The translations under genes were made by a program, and so were the position numbers. Under the pieces are notes generated by a model, which saw only the letters and a program-made list of their open reading frames with translations, was not told where the DNA came from and did no database searches. 64,000 bases of DNA from Patescibacteria group bacterium (GTDB taxonomy: Bacteria > Patescibacteriota > Gracilibacteria > BD1-5 > UBA2023), in the NCBI GenBank assembly GCA_031539225.1, contig JAVKLJ010000003.1, positions 11,069 to 75,068 of the forward strand, in the 5' to 3' direction. Below are positions 408 through 46,161 of this stretch, piece after piece. Numbering within the stretch: the first letter of the stretch is position 1; every line of letters begins with the position of its first letter.

Positions 408-481
408 TGGAGGCACCTGCCGGAGTCGAACCGGCCTCCAAAGCTTTGCAGGCTTCTGTATGACCGCTCTACCAAGGCGCC
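408..481 (-). tRNA. tRNA-Cys (GCA)
   Basis: Acceptor stem GGCGCCT/AGGTGCC, anticodon stem GAAGC/GCTTT with loop CTGCAAA, T-arm GCCGG-TTCGACT-CCGGC, discriminator U, encoded CCA. Confidence 0.9.
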
Positions 482-38697: not shown

Positions 38698-41601
38698 TTA
38701 TTTTGTAAATGTAGCACTAGCACCAGCTGTACCAACATAAGTTTCAGAATCAGCAACACCACCTACAGAGTAGTAGAGTTGTTTTACAGAAATCTGAAGT
38801 TGACCACCTGCAGGAAGAAGGTTAGCAGAATCGACATATACTTCGAATTCAACCGTACCATTATTCTTGTCAGCTGTCATATTAGTCGTAAGACCAGTAA
38901 CAGCAACAGTTTTATCTATAGCAGGAACTGAACCACTACCAGAAGAGACACCAGTCTGTCCAAATGTATTTGAACTTCCAAGATCACGGAGGTAAGCAGA
39001 AGCAGTGTATGAAGTATTACCTGGAAGGGCAGTCTTGAAGTCAAACTTAGCACCTGTAAGAGTAATACCAGTATTTGAGTCAGGGTTAGTAACCTTAACC
39101 TTAAATACATTTTCAGATACAGCAGTTACGAGAACTGTTGGAGCAACAGTACCGATAGTGTAAGATTTGAATGATACACCAGCAGTTGTAGGAGTAACAG
39201 CAGTAGAGTTAGAATCACGAACTACAGTAAGATTACCAGTAGAAGTCGAGAGAATAAGTGTCTTTCCGTAAGAAGATTCAAGTGAAGTTGTAGTAAGAAC
39301 AACCTTATAGTTCTTTGTTACATCTTGACCGATAGTATCGTTCATGCTATCAATAGTAAGAGTATTATTAGAGATAGTAGCTGTAGCAGAGATCTGAGCG
39401 TTTGTAGCAACATCAACGAGTTTTACACTTGAACTACTACTTGCAATACCTGAAAGGCTTGCAGTACCACCATTTGTAAAAATAACTTTTTGAAGACGAG
39501 CAGCTTCATTACGAGCAGTGATAGCAAATCGACCGATTTCTTGGTCAGCAGAGCTATAGAGACGAGCAGTAGAAGGAGCAGCGACAGTAGCAGTCTTGAG
39601 TTCAACTTGTGAAGTATTTACAGTAATCTTGTCACCAGTGAGGTTTTGACCAGCACCGATAGAAGCTTGATTATTGCTTGAATCACGAACATCAGAGAAT
39701 GCAACTACGAATGTAAATGCACCATTTACATTAGCATTGTTCTTTACAGAACCTTCAATAGTAAGAGTACCTTTATTTGTAGAATCAACAACAAATGAAA
39801 CAGTCTTAGCTTGAGCTACACCATTTGCAAGAGTTGTGAGAGTACCGATTTCAGAACCATTAAGCTTGATAGAGAGTTGATCATTTACGAACGCGTCAAT
39901 ACCAGAACCTGTAATAGTAGGAGTAACAGTAATACCACGAACTGTAAGTGGAACAGCAGATGTTACAGTTCCGTTGAAGAGCTTAACATTGTTTGAACCA
40001 GGAGCAATAGTGAGACTACCTGTAGAGTTCTTTGTAAATGTAACTTCTACATTAGTAAACTGAAGTGATGCACCTGTAGATGGGCTTGTAACCACCTGAG
40101 TAGCATAACCAGTTGTAAGTTCAGAAGCGTTTACATCAGTACTAGAGTCAAACTTGAATCCGAGGATTGTAGAGCTAGAGTCAACGAGGACATCGGCTTT
40201 AAGTTCGTAAGTTTGAGTGTTTCCAGCTGTAAGAACATCTGAAAGACCAGATACAGAGAGCTTTTCGTTAGACATAGAGACAGTACCAACTGCTACACCA
40301 TTTCGGTAAAGAACTGGGTTAGAAAGTCGTTTTGTAAAGTCAGTAGATCCAGAACGAGTAAGAGTAAATCCAGTAACCTTAGTATCTCGTGAACCAGCAG
40401 CAACATCAACCTTAAGGATTGATTGAGCAGCCTTACCAGGAGTTACAGTACCAGCAGAAGCTGTAAGAGTTACAGTAGTCTTAGCAGTAGTGTAAGAAGT
40501 AGTATTAAGGAGACCGAGAGTTACAGGAGCACCAGTAACAGTTCCGTCAGCATTTACTGCATCAAGAGCGAATTGGTGTTGACTATTCTGAGCACCAGAG
40601 AGGTTAACGAGGATATCAACTGAAGTTGATGTTCCAGCCTTAACAACGAGTGCAGGAGAGAAGTAAACATTACCCTTTTGAGAAGTAGAGTTGTAGTAGT
40701 CAGCAGAAGAAGAGATGATAACACCACTCTGAGAAGCACGGATACCGTTAGTATCAGTAATATCAGAAGATGCACCAAGACCAGATCGGCTTACGATAAG
40801 AGATCGAACAGTAACATCCTTACCAGCAGAAGCTGTAAGTTTTACTGAACCAACCTTAACGCTTGAAGCGTTCATAGGAACATACTGTGCAACAGCTGTA
40901 CCATCGAGAGCAACTGAGAGAGCTCCACCACCAACTGTAGTAGTTGTACCAGTAGTTGTAGTAGTAGTTCCAGAACCATTAGATGGAGGAACTGTAGGCT
41001 CAGTAGTTGTAGTATCGAGTTGAGCAGCACATGCAGCCATCTTGAATGCTTCACCACGAGATGAAGTAGCATTTGGACGGAAGTATGTAGCAGAAGATGC
41101 ACATCCGAGCTCGTTAGCACGGTTTACATATCCAGCAAGATCACCAAGACCATTGAGGTCTGTGTAACCAGCATCAGTAGTACTAGCAGTTTCACCTACT
41201 GCACCAAGAAGCATTTTTGTCATTTCAGCACGAGTTACAGATGCTGTAGGGCGGAAGTTTGCATTCTTTGTAGAAACAACTCCAGCTTGAGCAAGTGCCT
41301 CGATGTAACCACAAAGGTCACCGAGCTTAGAGCTTACGTCACCGTAAACTGTACCAGAACATTCAGTAGCTGTATAACCACCGAGATTAGCAGTAACTTT
41401 TGCAAGTTCTGCACGAGTAATAGTGTCACCAAGGCGATATGCTGCCTCAGAAGACTGAGTACCGATAACAGCGTTATCAGCGAGGACTGAAGCGTAAGGG
41501 AGGAACTCACTTGCAGCAGACACAACGGAAGTACCGAGTGTAGAAGCAAGAAGAGCAACCATACTTACAGCAGAAGTCATCTTCGTAGAGAAGTTAACCA
41601 T
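38698..41601 (-). CDS. 967-aa S-layer-like surface protein (SLH-like N-terminal modules, Thr-rich linker, Ig-like beta repeats)
   Basis: Uninterrupted standard-code ORF with no TGA. Signal peptide ...ASTLGTSVVSAASEF. Contains FRPTASVTRAEMTKMLLGAVG and FRPNATSSRGEAFKM. Ser/Thr/Val/Gly-rich composition. Confidence 0.8.
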   Translation of the reverse strand: MVNFSTKMTSAVSMVALLASTLGTSVVSAASEFLPYASVLADNAVIGTQSSEAAYRLGDTITRAELAKVTANLGGYTATECSGTVYGDVSSKLGDLCGYIEALAQAGVVSTKNANFRPTASVTRAEMTKMLLGAVGETASTTDAGYTDLNGLGDLAGYVNRANELGCASSATYFRPNATSSRGEAFKMAACAAQLDTTTTEPTVPPSNGSGTTTTTTGTTTTVGGGALSVALDGTAVAQYVPMNASSVKVGSVKLTASAGKDVTVRSLIVSRSGLGASSDITDTNGIRASQSGVIISSSADYYNSTSQKGNVYFSPALVVKAGTSTSVDILVNLSGAQNSQHQFALDAVNADGTVTGAPVTLGLLNTTSYTTAKTTVTLTASAGTVTPGKAAQSILKVDVAAGSRDTKVTGFTLTRSGSTDFTKRLSNPVLYRNGVAVGTVSMSNEKLSVSGLSDVLTAGNTQTYELKADVLVDSSSTILGFKFDSSTDVNASELTTGYATQVVTSPSTGASLQFTNVEVTFTKNSTGSLTIAPGSNNVKLFNGTVTSAVPLTVRGITVTPTITGSGIDAFVNDQLSIKLNGSEIGTLTTLANGVAQAKTVSFVVDSTNKGTLTIEGSVKNNANVNGAFTFVVAFSDVRDSSNNQASIGAGQNLTGDKITVNTSQVELKTATVAAPSTARLYSSADQEIGRFAITARNEAARLQKVIFTNGGTASLSGIASSSSSVKLVDVATNAQISATATISNNTLTIDSMNDTIGQDVTKNYKVVLTTTSLESSYGKTLILSTSTGNLTVVRDSNSTAVTPTTAGVSFKSYTIGTVAPTVLVTAVSENVFKVKVTNPDSNTGITLTGAKFDFKTALPGNTSYTASAYLRDLGSSNTFGQTGVSSGSGSVPAIDKTVAVTGLTTNMTADKNNGTVEFEVYVDSANLLPAGGQLQISVKQLYYSVGGVADSETYVGTAGASATFTK

Positions 41602-41975
41602 AGAAAAGTAGGTTAAAAAAAATAAATGCGGTAAACCACCGCGGCGGGGACAGTGACAATCTTGGTCAGAGATTATCGGGTTTTGAAATTCTCTGGTCAG
41701 GAGAATCTCACCAAGCCACTTTTTTACAAGTGGTAAGGTTAAAGCTTTAACCTCAAGTTACATACATAACGAGAGGACAGACAGGGTATTTCATGAAAAA
41801 ATATACCTTCTTTCCTCCCCTTATATAGCGGTAAAGAAGTGACCAAAGCTATTATGAGCGTGATGTTAAAGAACGCCACGACACGAAGAACGCGCCGAGA
41901 TTACGCGGAAATATTATGGAGTATTGGCTTAAAGTCAAATAAAAGTAGGTCATCTTCACTCTCATTTCACGAAAG
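41602..41975 (-). ncRNA. GC-enriched structured leader or unclassified RNA element upstream of the S-layer-like gene
   Basis: A series of hand-foldable helices: GGTTAA-AGCT-TTAACC, CCACTT-GTAAAA-AAGTGG, CTTGGT...ACCAAG enclosing CAGAGA...TCTCTG, and a long GGGGAGGAAAGAAGG...CCCTGTCTGTCCTCTC hairpin. No ORF. Confidence 0.4.
41612..41642 (-). terminator. terminator-like hairpin at the 3' end of the leader, about 10 nt (to the end of the T-run; about 26 nt from the stem) upstream of the S-layer ATG
   Basis: Minus strand: GCGGT-GGTTT-ACCGC followed by ATTTATTTTTTTT. Confidence 0.4.
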
Positions 41976-42294
41976 AAAAAATTTTTACAATAAATAACAA
42001 TAAACGCAATTCCTTTGTTTTCTGATATTTAAGAGGAAAAAAAGAAAAAGTAAAAAAAGAATTCTATTTTGTTGTTTTTTTTATACAATAAGAGAGCTAC
42101 AGAAAAGATTCGAGCGTAAAGAGAACCGAAAAAACACAATAGAAAAGAATAAAAAGAAAAATAACAATCTTCTTCCAAAAAAAACGAAACACAATTCTCG
42201 CACCCATGTGAGAGAAAGTCTCATAAGATTTTCTCTCATAAGAAAAAATCGATACTTTTTCGTATGCGTTATACTCAATAAATTTATACCCGAT

Positions 42295-43809
42295 ATGAAT
42301 CCTATACTTCTCATTACCCTCCTCGCTGGAGGCATTTCTGGCGGACTCGCTGTATACTTTTACCTTCAAAATCAACTCAAGCAAAAAGCAAAGTGAATAC
42401 TTGCAGAAGCCGAAAAAGAACGCAATGACATAATCACACGAGCCGAAGAAGTCGCAAAAAACATCCGAAAAGAGATAGAAGATGCTCGAAATGACATCAA
42501 AGACAGAAAGCAAAGTGCTCTCGAACAAGAATCACGACTCTCTGAAAAAGAATGAAAAATCGATAGAAAATATGAAGAACTCGAGCAAAAAAGAAATGAA
42601 CTCATGAAAAAAGAACAGTCTATCGAAGAGCGAATATCATCTATAGATAAAAAACAATTCGAAATAGAAACAAAACTCGAACAAGTATCAAGACTCTCAT
42701 CTGAAGAAGCGAAAGAACTCCTCATGAAATATACAGAGGAACGCTATGAAAGAGATATCGTCTCACTCATCGAAAAAAAGAAAAAAGATCTCAAGGCGCG
42801 CGAAGCAGAGATATCAAAAGAAATCCTCATCAAATCTATCCAGCAATATGCTGGTGAAGTCACTGGAGAAACGACACAAACGATGGTACAACTCGAAAGT
42901 GACGATCTCAAAGGAAAGCTCATCGGAAAGGAAGGGCGAAATATCATAGCATTTGAAAAAGCAACTGGGGTTTCACTCATCATCGATGATGCACCAGATA
43001 CAGTATTTCTTTCGAGCTTTGACCTCTTTCGTAGGTATATCGCGAAAAAATCACTCGAGGATCTCATAGCCGATAAAAGAATACAACCAGCCCGTATCGA
43101 GGAAATAGTAGAAAAAAATCAACAAGATGCAGATAAACTCATCTATGATCTCGGGCGAAAAACGATAGAAGAAATGGGAGTTATCGGTATTCCTGATGAG
43201 ATTGTTCCACTTATCGGAAAATTCAGGTTTCGTACGAGTTATGGACAAAATATACTGATGCACTCAAAGGAAGTGGCGTATATCGCTGAGGGTATCGCAA
43301 AACTCATCGGGGCTGATCCAGTTCTCGCACTCAAGGGAGGACTCCTCCATGATCTCGGAAAGGCAATGGATCATGATATCGAAGGAACTCATCCAGAAAT
43401 CGGTGGTCGTATAGCACGAAAATATGGTCTCGATGAGAAAACTATCAACATCATCGAATGACACCATGACGATGTCCCACAGATTTGTATCGAAACAAAG
43501 ATCGTACAGATAGCGGATGCCATATCAGCTGTCAGACCTGGTGCAAGACGCATGAATGTAGAAGACTATATCAAACGAATCGGAGAAATGGAGAATATCG
43601 CTATGAGCTTTCCTGGAGTAAACAAGGCATATGCACTCTCTGCTGGTCGTGAAATTCGTGTATTTGTAGATGCTGATACGGTATCTGATCTCGAAGCCGA
43701 AAAACGAGCACAAGAAATCGCAACAAATATCGAAGAAAACTGTAGTTACCCTGGTGAAGTAAAGGTAATCGTATTTCGTGAAAAGAAGGCAATCCAGTAC
43801 GCAAAATAA
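42295..43809 (+). CDS. rny: ribonuclease Y
   Basis: N-terminal transmembrane helix, coiled coil, KH domain (GKLIGKEGRNI), HD domain (LLHDLGKA ... GHHDD). Confidence 0.9.
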
Positions 43810-43846: not shown

Positions 43847-44641
43847 ATGTATCCACTTATCAACATCTCGGATTCCATACAAATTTATACATTTTGACTC
43901 TGCATGGTGGTTGCTTGGCTTCTCTTTTTTGGGATTCTCCACCACTTTGTTGCTGAAAAATGAATACAAAAACATCCTTTTGGAAATATTGTGAGCTTTA
44001 CTCTTTCAAGTTTCTTCTTTGCAAGAATTTTCTATATCCTCTCAGAATGGAGAAATGAAAAATTTATTTTTGTGAATGTGGTAGAATGATGAGGATTTCT
44101 CCATTTCTTGAGTGAATTTTTTATCACGGATACCTACAAGCTCTCACTCGCAGGGGCCATAGTAGGATTTCTTCTTGTATTTTTCATCATTACAAAACGA
44201 GATAAAAATCCTATAGAAAAATATATAGATGCGCTCGTTCCCGCATTTTTGATTATGGCTGGAATAGGGTACTTCGGCGCTCTCCTTGGTGGTCAAGTGT
44301 ATGGTATTCCTTTCAATTCTGTCTTTTCAATACATTATACAGATAAAAACAGCATAGTACCATTTCAAAATGAACTCTTTCCACTTCCTATACTCTATAG
44401 TATCTGATGTGCCTTGATATACCTCTATCTCAAAAGAATCGAAAAGAAACAACAGCCACCACATGGAACCATGGGGTTTCTCGGTATGGGCATATATGGT
44501 GTTATGCTTTTCTTATGAGAATTCCTGAATGGTTCAAGTGACATGCTCAGCTCAATTTTTTTCATAAATTTTAATCAAGTTATAGGACTGATTTTTATTT
44601 TGTGTGCATTTTTATGAATGATGAAAATAATCCAAAAATAG
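43847..44641 (+). CDS. lgt: prolipoprotein diacylglyceryl transferase
   Basis: Polytopic membrane protein. ARIFYILSEW, GYFGALLGGQVYG, FLGEFLNG. Confidence 0.8.
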
Positions 44642-44688
44642 AAAGAAAACAAACAAAAAAAGAAAATACCGCACGGATTTTCTTTTTT

Positions 44689-46161
44689 TTGTGGTGCATA
44701 GCATTTTTTCTTTGAGTCACGCCTGGTTCACTCGGATCAGAGATTTCTGTATGCTTGATGATGATTATTGTAGGGTTTTTGCTGATAATTTTTGAAATAA
44801 AAAATACCTATAAAATACTCATAATCCTTTGAAATTGCGCACTATGATGAATTTTTTGACTCTTATCTTATTCTGAACACACACTCGACGAATCGATATT
44901 TCTCGAAAAAATACACCAAAACAATCAAAAATTTCATGTCGAAGGAATAGTTGATTCTGTGGCATATAAGGGTGACTTTAGCACAACATATATACTCAGT
45001 ATCGACATGATCGCCAATTGATACAATGCATTGATAAAGGATTCTTCCATCAACTTCGACATACTTGTCGAAGTTCCATCAAATCTCAAAATATATCCAT
45101 GAGAATCTATCGAATTTGAGAGCAAACTCAACGCTATATCCTTATCATGAGATGATTGATTTAAGAAATATGCATTCTGAAAATGAATTTATGGGAAAGC
45201 TCAAGTGACAACATTTATTCGCAAAAATAGTACAGATAAATGAATAATACTGACTATCCAGGAACAAGCGAAACAAGCTATATTTCGGTGATTTCCAAGG
45301 GAGGAAGCGGGAGTAATACTTGGAATGGTTCTTTGAAACATAGATCTCATCACAAAAAATCTCAAAGAGCAATTTCTTTTGTCATGAACTACTCACATTC
45401 TTGTCGTCAGTGGTTCAAATATCGCTTTTGTCATGCTTATAATGAGTATGATATTTCGCTATATATCACTCTGAAGGATATTGCAAATAATCATCATGAT
45501 TCTCTCTTTATTATGATACTGATATTTGGTATGATGGGATACTCCTGTGATACGAGCAACACTTATGGGGGGAGTGAGTTTTTTTGCTATAGAATACGGG
45601 AAAAAGATATCGTCGACAGCGATAATACTCCTGATTGGATTTGTATTGGTATGGATCAATCCTTTTTCACTTGCCTATGATCCTGGATTTTGACTTTCTT
45701 TCGGAGCAACAATAGCAATCATACTCTATCACGCACCACTCGAAAAAATACTCATAACAATAAAAATACCAAAAATAGTATCATCTATCCTTGCTGTGAC
45801 ATTTTCAGCAACAATCGGGAGTCTCCCTGCAACTATATATCATTTTTGAGTGATTGCCACTGGCTCTATAGTATCAAATTTGCTTATATCCGTAGCGGTG
45901 TGATGTATTATGATACTTTGAGCCTTCTATATTATTTCTTCTCTTATTTGAGGATATTTTCTCTATAGTTTAGGATATCTCGTTTATCTGCCCACGACAT
46001 ATATCCTCACAATAACTGATATTTTTGCAAAATATCCCGTTATATCTATCCCTGAAAACTGGAAAAATATTATTTCCATAGCTCTCATTGGATATATCAG
46101 TGCATATATGATAGAACGGGAGATGGGAACTATGAGATACCAAAAAGGTCATGAGCAGTAA
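44689..46161 (+). CDS. comEC: ComEC/Rec2-family DNA internalisation channel protein (short form)
   Basis: Competence-domain motif FLLSGTTHILVVSGSNIAF (the Gly is TGA at 45385-45387), then PVIRATLMG. Ends about 260 aa after the motif with no metallo-beta-lactamase-like region. Start uncertain (TTG at 44689 or ATG at 44758). Confidence 0.7.

Follow-up and report, generated by a model that had tools for sequence, protein, structure and literature searches.

A conserved structured RNA upstream of the S-layer-like gene in a Gracilibacteria lineage, probably the 5' untranslated leader of its mRNA

The stretch described here occupies positions 41,602 to 41,975 of a window of 64,000 nucleotides (nt) taken from contig JAVKLJ010000003.1 (GenBank assembly GCA_031539225.1), which belongs to a Patescibacteria group bacterium of the Gracilibacteria. 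It lies in an intergenic gap of 693 bp separating two divergent genes, rny (plus strand) and a 967-aa gene on the minus strand which is S-layer-like, in agreement with an original prediction made from the letters of the window, and which carries an SLH domain. Our analysis suggests that the stretch is probably a cis-acting, structured 5' untranslated leader of about 300 nt, carried by the S-layer mRNA, and that it most likely controls the amount of coat protein. The features of the locus are collected in Table 1.

Table 1. Features at the S-layer-like locus, with positions numbered along the window.
Feature	Position	Strand	Description and basis
Direct repeats GTGAA-N6-GTGAAGA	41953-41970	-	Just upstream of the -35 box
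Near-consensus sigma-70 promoter	41911-41938	-	TTGACT 41933-41938, 16-nt spacer, TAATAT 41911-41916; promoter scan
5' segment, conserved	41905-41897	-	CGUAAUCUC
Predicted 5' leader RNA, about 303 nt	41602-41904	-	Fold z-score, covariance model, SLH linkage
hp2	41880-41896	-	GGCGCG / CGUGUC; first 5' hairpin
hp3	41859-41880	-	Loop UUCUUUAACAU at 41863-41873
Single strand	41839-41849	-	GCUUUGGUCAC; conserved as GCUUGGU(C/U)
P-long	41765-41825	-	Base UAUAAGGGGAGGA / UCCUCUCGUUAUG; 61 nt in all, conserved G.G mismatch, variable tip
Hairpin a	41757-41770	-	GUUAU-GUAU-GUAAC; GCAA-type loop in most relatives
Hairpin b	41735-41754	-	GAGGUUAAAGCUUUAACCUU; inside the invariant 25-nt block AACUUGAGGUUAAAGCUUUAACCU
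Hairpin c	41716-41733	-	CCACUU-GUAAAA-AAGUGG; all 6 pairs changed on both sides, up to 5 standard pair types
Hairpin d	41685-41709	-	Heptaloop CUGACCA; all 6 modelled pairs covary
Hairpin e	41655-41677	-	Second heptaloop CUGACCA; all 8 pairs covary, 95.9% of cells paired
GC hairpin, terminator-like	41628-41642	-	GCGGU-GGUUU-ACCGC; terminator scan
U-tract	41615-41627	-	AUUUAUUUUUUUU
Start region	41599-41615	-	UAACC 41611-41615 (-14), AUG 41599-41601; no Shine-Dalgarno sequence
S-layer-like gene, putatively served by the leader	38698-41601	-	967 aa; SLH domain, E = 2.3e-10
rny (RNase Y)	42295-43809	+	Divergent neighbour, start near 42295

The claim that the minus strand is highly structured was borne out. 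The minimum free energy (MFE) of 41602-41975 on this strand was -103.2 kcal/mol, against -79.3 ± 5.9 kcal/mol in shuffled sequences (z = -4.07), and none of 100 shuffles folded as well; the plus strand of the same stretch gave z = -2.96. The region had also been called conspicuously GC-rich, which is true relative to the neighbouring non-coding DNA (0.40 against 0.26 in the rest of the gap) but not relative to the genome, whose mean is 0.369 and in which it stands at the 75th percentile, nor to the S-layer-like gene (0.42). As for its extent, the RNA itself was retained at about 300 nt rather than the 340 first proposed, the 5' 70 nt (41905-41975) being promoter DNA and upstream repeats.

When 40 relatives were searched at the DNA level, the region was recovered at 65-93% identity in two other genera and in 15 of the genus's own 17 genomes, a degree of conservation close to that of the flanking proteins (70-80% identical). 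The gene order persists as well, rny and the S-layer gene being separated by 610-940 bp. The 3' core was made into a covariance model (R1, 121 positions), which was searched against 89 genomes of the family and gave exactly one copy per genome in 60 of them, representing 18 of 24 genera. In an order-wide sample, the matches were confined to the family save one, found in a second family. That locus has an SLH gene downstream, and its promoter boxes are TTGACT/TATAAT, with the GTGAA repeats. It also has the UUCUUUAACAU loop, a hairpin b whose loop is GGCU and a long stem in which the sequence changes compensate each other (CUUAGGAAG / CUUCCUGAG). In every fetched locus where the core motif was located and the contig reached the gene, the core lay 140-350 nt upstream of the ATG of the SLH gene and on the same strand, as expected for the long structured 5' leader that the original prediction had put forward. 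The linkage also holds in ten loci where rny is not the neighbour. The element belongs to the S-layer gene, and it was recovered ahead of the SLH-domain gene in about 50 related Gracilibacteria genomes, in which UGA is a sense codon.

No second copy of any leader motif was found in this genome, and the CUGACCA-loop hairpin has no other occurrence there. The scan with Rfam that had been suggested matched no family: with Rfam 15 (4227 models) at the gathering threshold, only five tRNAs reached it in the whole window, and with permissive filters (E <= 10) over 41400-42400 the best hits had about 20 bits and E >= 0.75, on the wrong strand or outside the element. RNase P RNA, considered because of GGGGAGGAAAG, lies on another contig, and ARAGORN detected no transfer-messenger RNA in the window. 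Literature searches returned no description of this leader. The best-supported view is that it represents a previously undescribed RNA family of a known functional kind.

The promoter boxes in Table 1 are conserved in 39 of the 40 family loci and also in the second family (f2), and across loci the conserved promoter sits about 300-450 nt upstream. From their position, transcription is predicted to start near 41904. The GTGAA repeats are invariant in 17 of 17 genus-level loci and present in 39 of 40 family loci as well as in the second-family locus, and the combination of repeats and promoter occurs a single time in this genome; they are probably a DNA site for a transcription activator, located outside the RNA. 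The pair TTGCGT...TAAAAA (42009-41982, minus strand), first proposed as the promoter, is conserved only as a TTG box and only within the genus, and is superseded by TTGACT-16-TAATAT (41938-41911), the family-wide promoter. At best genus-specific, it lies upstream of the GTGAA repeats and may be an extra promoter at the genus level; Lactobacillus S-layer genes often have two promoters. Another candidate from the scan, an internal promoter formed by CTGACC in loop d and GATAAT in hairpin e with a spacing of 17 nt, was rejected, its spacing being destroyed by insertions of at least 12 nt in three loci (L005, L008, L052), which an RNA fold would tolerate. Comparison of the relatives' loci revealed no conserved promoter between leader and ATG, nor inside the element. 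Since the sole family-conserved promoter is upstream of the leader, the distance from the GC hairpin to the ATG is only 26 nt, and the insertions break the internal spacing, leader and gene would form a single transcript.

Nine hairpins were recognised in the leader. Eight of them were confirmed in relatives, five of which covary strongly and three of which are compatible with pairing but barely vary. The check on conservation and covariation of the helices, which the original prediction had proposed, was clearly passed. The 3' core was aligned by fitting to the covariance model (51 sequences, 49 distinct). In this alignment pairing holds in 94.8% of cells; the figure is 73% for shuffles and 38-56% when the partners are slid. 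Changes on both sides affect 289 cells, compared with 87 ± 9 after shuffling. Double changes occur in each pair of hairpins c, d and e, with up to five pair types. For the 5' module, RNAalifold on plain MAFFT alignments gave no usable consensus, the hairpins being misaligned, and a covariance model was used instead.

At the 5' end, all 6 pairs of hp2 are changed on both sides and 77% of its cells are paired in a model-fitted alignment of 30 sequences, and a manual reading agrees. Its loop shows the motif UGGUCU in most relatives, not in this genome. In hp3, the UUAACA of the loop is conserved family-wide and in the second family, and the stem GAUGUU/AACAUC is mostly invariant in most genera, hence with little covariation. 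Further downstream, the UGGUCA of the single strand GCUUUGGUCAC is complementary to the CUGACCA loops of hairpins d and e. A contact between these loops and the UGGUC elements is possible on the basis of this complementarity; the partners are all invariant, and the loop variant CUGACCC (L019, L047, L051) comes without a matching change.

The long imperfect hairpin GGGGAGGA.../...UCCUCUC was located as claimed and corresponds to P-long. It is present in the MFE fold of all 30 folded loci, whatever the content of its tip, which measures 35 nt here and 31-153 nt in relatives, often as tandem repeats. Anchor-based ungapped counting over 44 loci showed the seven core pairs (GAGAGGA/UCCUCUC) to be intact in 42-44 of them; the four pairs just inside the tip are intact in 39-41 and show 4-6 pair types apiece. 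The mismatch position is G.G in 28 loci, C-G in 14 and U-G in 2. In an alignment not fitted to structure, 92.5% of the cells of P-long are paired, against 42-57% when slid. In several tips (L002, L007, L010, L013, L014), one arm consists of short tandem repeats and the other of complementary repeats, for example AUAGGUA four times and UUCACUA four times in L010. The rod seems to grow by repeat expansion with pairing kept.

The helices GGUUAA-AGCU-UUAACC (hairpin b) and CCACUU...AAGUGG (hairpin c) were likewise found where the original prediction had placed them. Hairpin a has 98% of its cells paired and is replaced by AAG-GAAA-CUU in distant genera. The block around hairpin b is invariant in 16 of 16 genus loci, and over 49 sequences the hairpin is nearly invariant, its changes being almost all to G-U wobble (15, 7 and 3 G-U). 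Such wobble changes are expected of an RNA helix and not of a DNA palindrome. A small open reading frame (ORF) in this block, AUG-CAA-AUA-ACU-UGA-GGU-UAA, was the sole recurrent one; it was discarded, as its AUG is missing in distant genera and it has no upstream start signal. In the 3' part, the nested element CTTGGT / CAGAGA...TCTCTG / ACCAAG was replaced by two separate CUGACCA-loop hairpins, d and e. The nested helix is perfect in this genome and in the closest clade and decays to 3-5 of 6 pairs elsewhere, whereas the two-hairpin model keeps 6 of 6 and covaries. The loop of hairpin d is invariant in about 8 genera. L005 and L008 carry a clean insertion of a further 12-nt hairpin, CCGCCUCGGCGG, between hairpins d and e, and larger insertions occur at the same place in L052 and L054.

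The strand of the element was apparent from wobble pairs. G-U exceeded A-C by 75:4 in an unfitted alignment (A9), and by 95:18 (A5) and 36:13 (A8) in two alignments fitted to this strand. The excess is seen in all three and thus points to an RNA on the strand of the S-layer gene.

Two sets of competing pairings were observed. A long-range helix, P-J, would join (C)CUCNNG(U), located 7-10 nt upstream of P-long, with (A)CNNGAG(G) just upstream of hairpin b. Whichever 3' variant is present (CUUGAGG, CAUGAGG, CAGGGG, CAGAGG or CGGAAGG), the 5' partner complements it, and the mean z-score of P-J is -1.5 over 42 loci, with 64% below -1; the partner is poor in this genome (z = +0.17). P-J draws on G residues that hairpin b also needs. 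Likewise, the sequence GUUAU is claimed both by hairpin a and by the five outermost pairs of P-long, and these two are mutually exclusive. Each of the competing alternatives is compatible with about 98% of the sequences. These helices could reflect a coaxially stacked junction or a two-state switch.

At the 3' end of the leader, the hairpin GCGGU-GGUUU-ACCGC and its U-run are present as described, with the stem ending 26 nt from the ATG. A strict scan detected hairpin and U-tract in 23 of 44 loci, and three more (L005, L008, L043) were recognised by eye, which brings the number to about 26. The stems have only 4-5 GC pairs and are compensated (GCGGA/UCCGC, GCGCA/UGCGC, ACGAG/CUCGU). One clade of the genus lacks the hairpin, as do the distant genera, and the U-tract is kept even then.

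Of 44 loci, 41 have a motif UAAC(C/U) or UACCC at -14 to -18 before the S-layer start codon. Over the whole genome, TAAC(C/T)/TACCC peaks at -15 to -13 of start codons: in about 880 genes it occurs 46 times at these three positions and 1-6 times at others. G is depleted to 7-10% at -20 to -3. The 3' tail of the 16S rRNA, GGAUGGACUAUCUCUUU (3' end on contig C3 near 30344, tail read as GGAUGGACUAUCUCUUUAUC), has lost the anti-Shine-Dalgarno core CCUCC. The depletion of G, the motif peak and the loss of CCUCC together indicate a lineage without Shine-Dalgarno pairing. A search confined to the 16S 3' tail gave no complementarity to TAAC(C/T)/TACCC. UAACC looks like the general start signal of the lineage, not particular to the S-layer gene. 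Masking of this signal by the 5' strand of hairpin b (AGGUUAAA against UUUAACCU) was considered and rejected; the two could pair here, but they do not in the majority clades with UACCC.

From the promoter, about 300 nt upstream, to the start codon there is thus a long untranslated stretch on the strand of the gene, as in a leader. Transcription would begin at TTGACT/TAATAT, probably activated via the GTGAA repeats, and would proceed through the leader into the gene. The RNA would fold into two 5' hairpins, a long rod with a variable tip and an invariant core made of hairpin a, hairpin b (GGUUAAAGCUUUAACC) and hairpin c, followed by two CUGACCA-loop hairpins, the short GC hairpin, the U-tract and the UAACC start signal. 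Its action would be in cis and post-transcriptional. The folded 5' part and the rod may protect the message or direct its processing, and the invariant core may be a platform recognised by a protein or the ribosome, or engaged in a tertiary contact, setting the output of the most abundant protein. Invariant loops and single strands such as the 25-nt block, the CUGACCA loops and UUCUUUAACAU exceed the needs of a protective hairpin, and their conservation points to a specific partner or a tertiary fold.

Structure-specific double-strand RNases recognise long near-perfect hairpins, and RNase III-processed 5' leaders are known to act as stabilisers in phage and Bacillus examples. RNase III and RNase Y are both encoded in the genome. 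P-long would be of the RNase III substrate type, with pairing kept and sequence free, although such processing is hypothetical. It resembles these leaders in being a nearly perfect duplex of 20-50 bp in relatives; unlike them, P-long is short and imperfect here (61 nt in all).

A rather different possibility, one of several raised by the original prediction, is an independent small RNA. Its gene would run from the promoter at 41938-41911 to a terminator at 41628-41615 and lie upstream of the S-layer gene by chance, and the RNA would act in trans. In this genome the promoter and the hairpin with its U-run would indeed give an RNA of about 280-290 nt. However, about 40% of loci lack the terminator-like hairpin while keeping the U-tract and the remaining element, and the hairpin is close to an ATG for which no separate conserved promoter was found, either in the interval or within the element. 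Moreover, the element accompanies the S-layer gene in every genome, even where the second neighbour differs, and it has neither a second copy nor an obvious target elsewhere in the genome. We therefore regard a small RNA as improbable. Still less credible is control at the DNA level only, by operator palindromes and promoter elements, with the RNA folds incidental. It is true that GGTTAAAGCTTTAACC is a perfect 16-bp DNA palindrome and that the GTGAA repeats are clearly a direct repeat of the DNA type. But stems c, d, e, hp2 and P-long change their sequence completely with pairing retained, the changes of hairpin b to G-U wobble break the palindrome and keep the RNA helix, the excess of G-U over A-C is strand-specific, and the insertions are self-contained hairpins, which leaves this explanation very little room.

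More serious, while still unlikely in our opinion, is a conditional switch, either a riboswitch or a protein-responsive attenuator, in which a ligand or protein bound to the core would choose between P-J and hairpin b and between outer P-long and hairpin a, leading to termination at the GC hairpin and U-tract or to access to the start region. The element does have a conserved and covarying domain such as a sensor calls for, with invariant loops and junctions, and this core stands beside a variable downstream platform (GC hairpin in about 26 of 44 loci, CUGACCA hairpins in about 8 genera), a riboswitch-like pattern. There are also two mutually exclusive helix pairs, each compatible with nearly all sequences, and P-J, which competes with hairpin b for G residues, shows compensating changes. 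On the other hand, neither a ligand nor a protein partner was found. A search for an antiterminator that would pair with the terminator's 5' half gave none, and no competing helix was seen to involve the terminator, whose stems have only 4-5 GC pairs. P-J has a weak partner in this genome, masking of the start signal by hairpin b fails in the UACCC clades, and S-layer genes are usually constitutive. An elaborate form of this scheme, which we consider slightly more doubtful, would be a new class of allosteric RNA switch, through which these episymbionts would adjust S-layer synthesis to a signal from the envelope or from host contact. An effector at AACUUGAGGUUAAAGCUUUAACCU would pick P-J or hairpin b, the CUGACCA loops would dock on UGGUC, and the outcome would be termination or read-through at the GC hairpin and U-tract, or ribosome loading at UAACC.

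The cis-acting leader is therefore preferred, and several points weigh against it. The terminator-like hairpin and U-tract lie 26 nt from the ATG here and in about 60% of relatives and, if efficient, would end the transcript before the gene. Hairpins hp3, a and b barely vary, so that their pairing rests on compatibility and not on covariation, and in A5 and A8 the share of paired cells is inflated because these alignments were fitted to the model structure. A mere stabiliser would need neither a 25-nt invariant block nor twin loops, and the mechanism is probably more specific. Finally, the transcription start, the read-through into the gene and every functional step are inferred from sequence.

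Among known systems, the closest likeness is with the S-layer mRNAs of Lactobacillus, whose half-lives of 14-15 min are owed to long structured 5' untranslated regions (UTRs) (PMC3666127). As in slpA of Lactobacillus acidophilus ATCC 4356 and L. crispatus K313 (PMC3666127), a strong promoter and a long folded leader precede the gene of the most abundant surface protein, and the Gracilibacteria S-layer gene is likewise codon-selected, here without UGA. The slpA leader gives an unusually stable mRNA. The two leaders have no relation in sequence or structure and belong to different phyla; the Gracilibacteria leader is longer, with at least nine helices, and unlike that of slpA it has a 25-nt invariant block and twin loops, conserved family-wide and beyond. 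This conservation argues for specific recognition over a generic protective hairpin. The element also resembles the orphan riboswitch candidates and cis-regulatory motifs of Rfam, with a covarying multi-stem core in a 5' UTR, stems of variable length, a downstream part varying between lineages and, in some members, a hairpin resembling an intrinsic terminator. It differs from them in preceding a gene for a structural protein rather than for metabolism or transport, in having no candidate ligand and in matching no Rfam family.

We report here a large, strongly covarying, single-copy RNA, most likely regulatory, in bacteria of the candidate phyla radiation (CPR), tied to a coat gene and present in one family and in at least one genome of a second. 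It offers a concrete object for learning how organisms with genomes of about 1 Mb control their most expensive protein. Also, as the leader has copies of the UAAC-type signal, it may show how translation starts without Shine-Dalgarno pairing.

The genome is about 1.02 Mb long, and close relatives are deposited as 'Candidatus Gracilibacteria' metagenome-assembled genomes. It reads TGA as sense: translation table 11 yields only 18 ORFs of at least 150 aa, whereas table 25 yields a dense gene map. The S-layer-like gene, which is rich in Gly, has no in-frame TGA in its 967 codons, against 3 in rny and 24 in the ORF at 44602-46161. This avoidance fits codon selection for very high expression. Most genera of the family (g1, g4, g7, g18, g20, g25, g28, g8) have rny as the divergent gene beside that of the S-layer protein, and the two are not adjacent in more distant genera. 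Elsewhere in the window, a tRNA with anticodon UCA, called tRNA-SeC by ARAGORN, stands beside a tRNA-Cys (296-374 and 408-481, minus strand). Since the genome reads UGA as sense, the UCA tRNA is presumably a UGA-decoding one (Gly in code 25) and not a selenocysteine tRNA.

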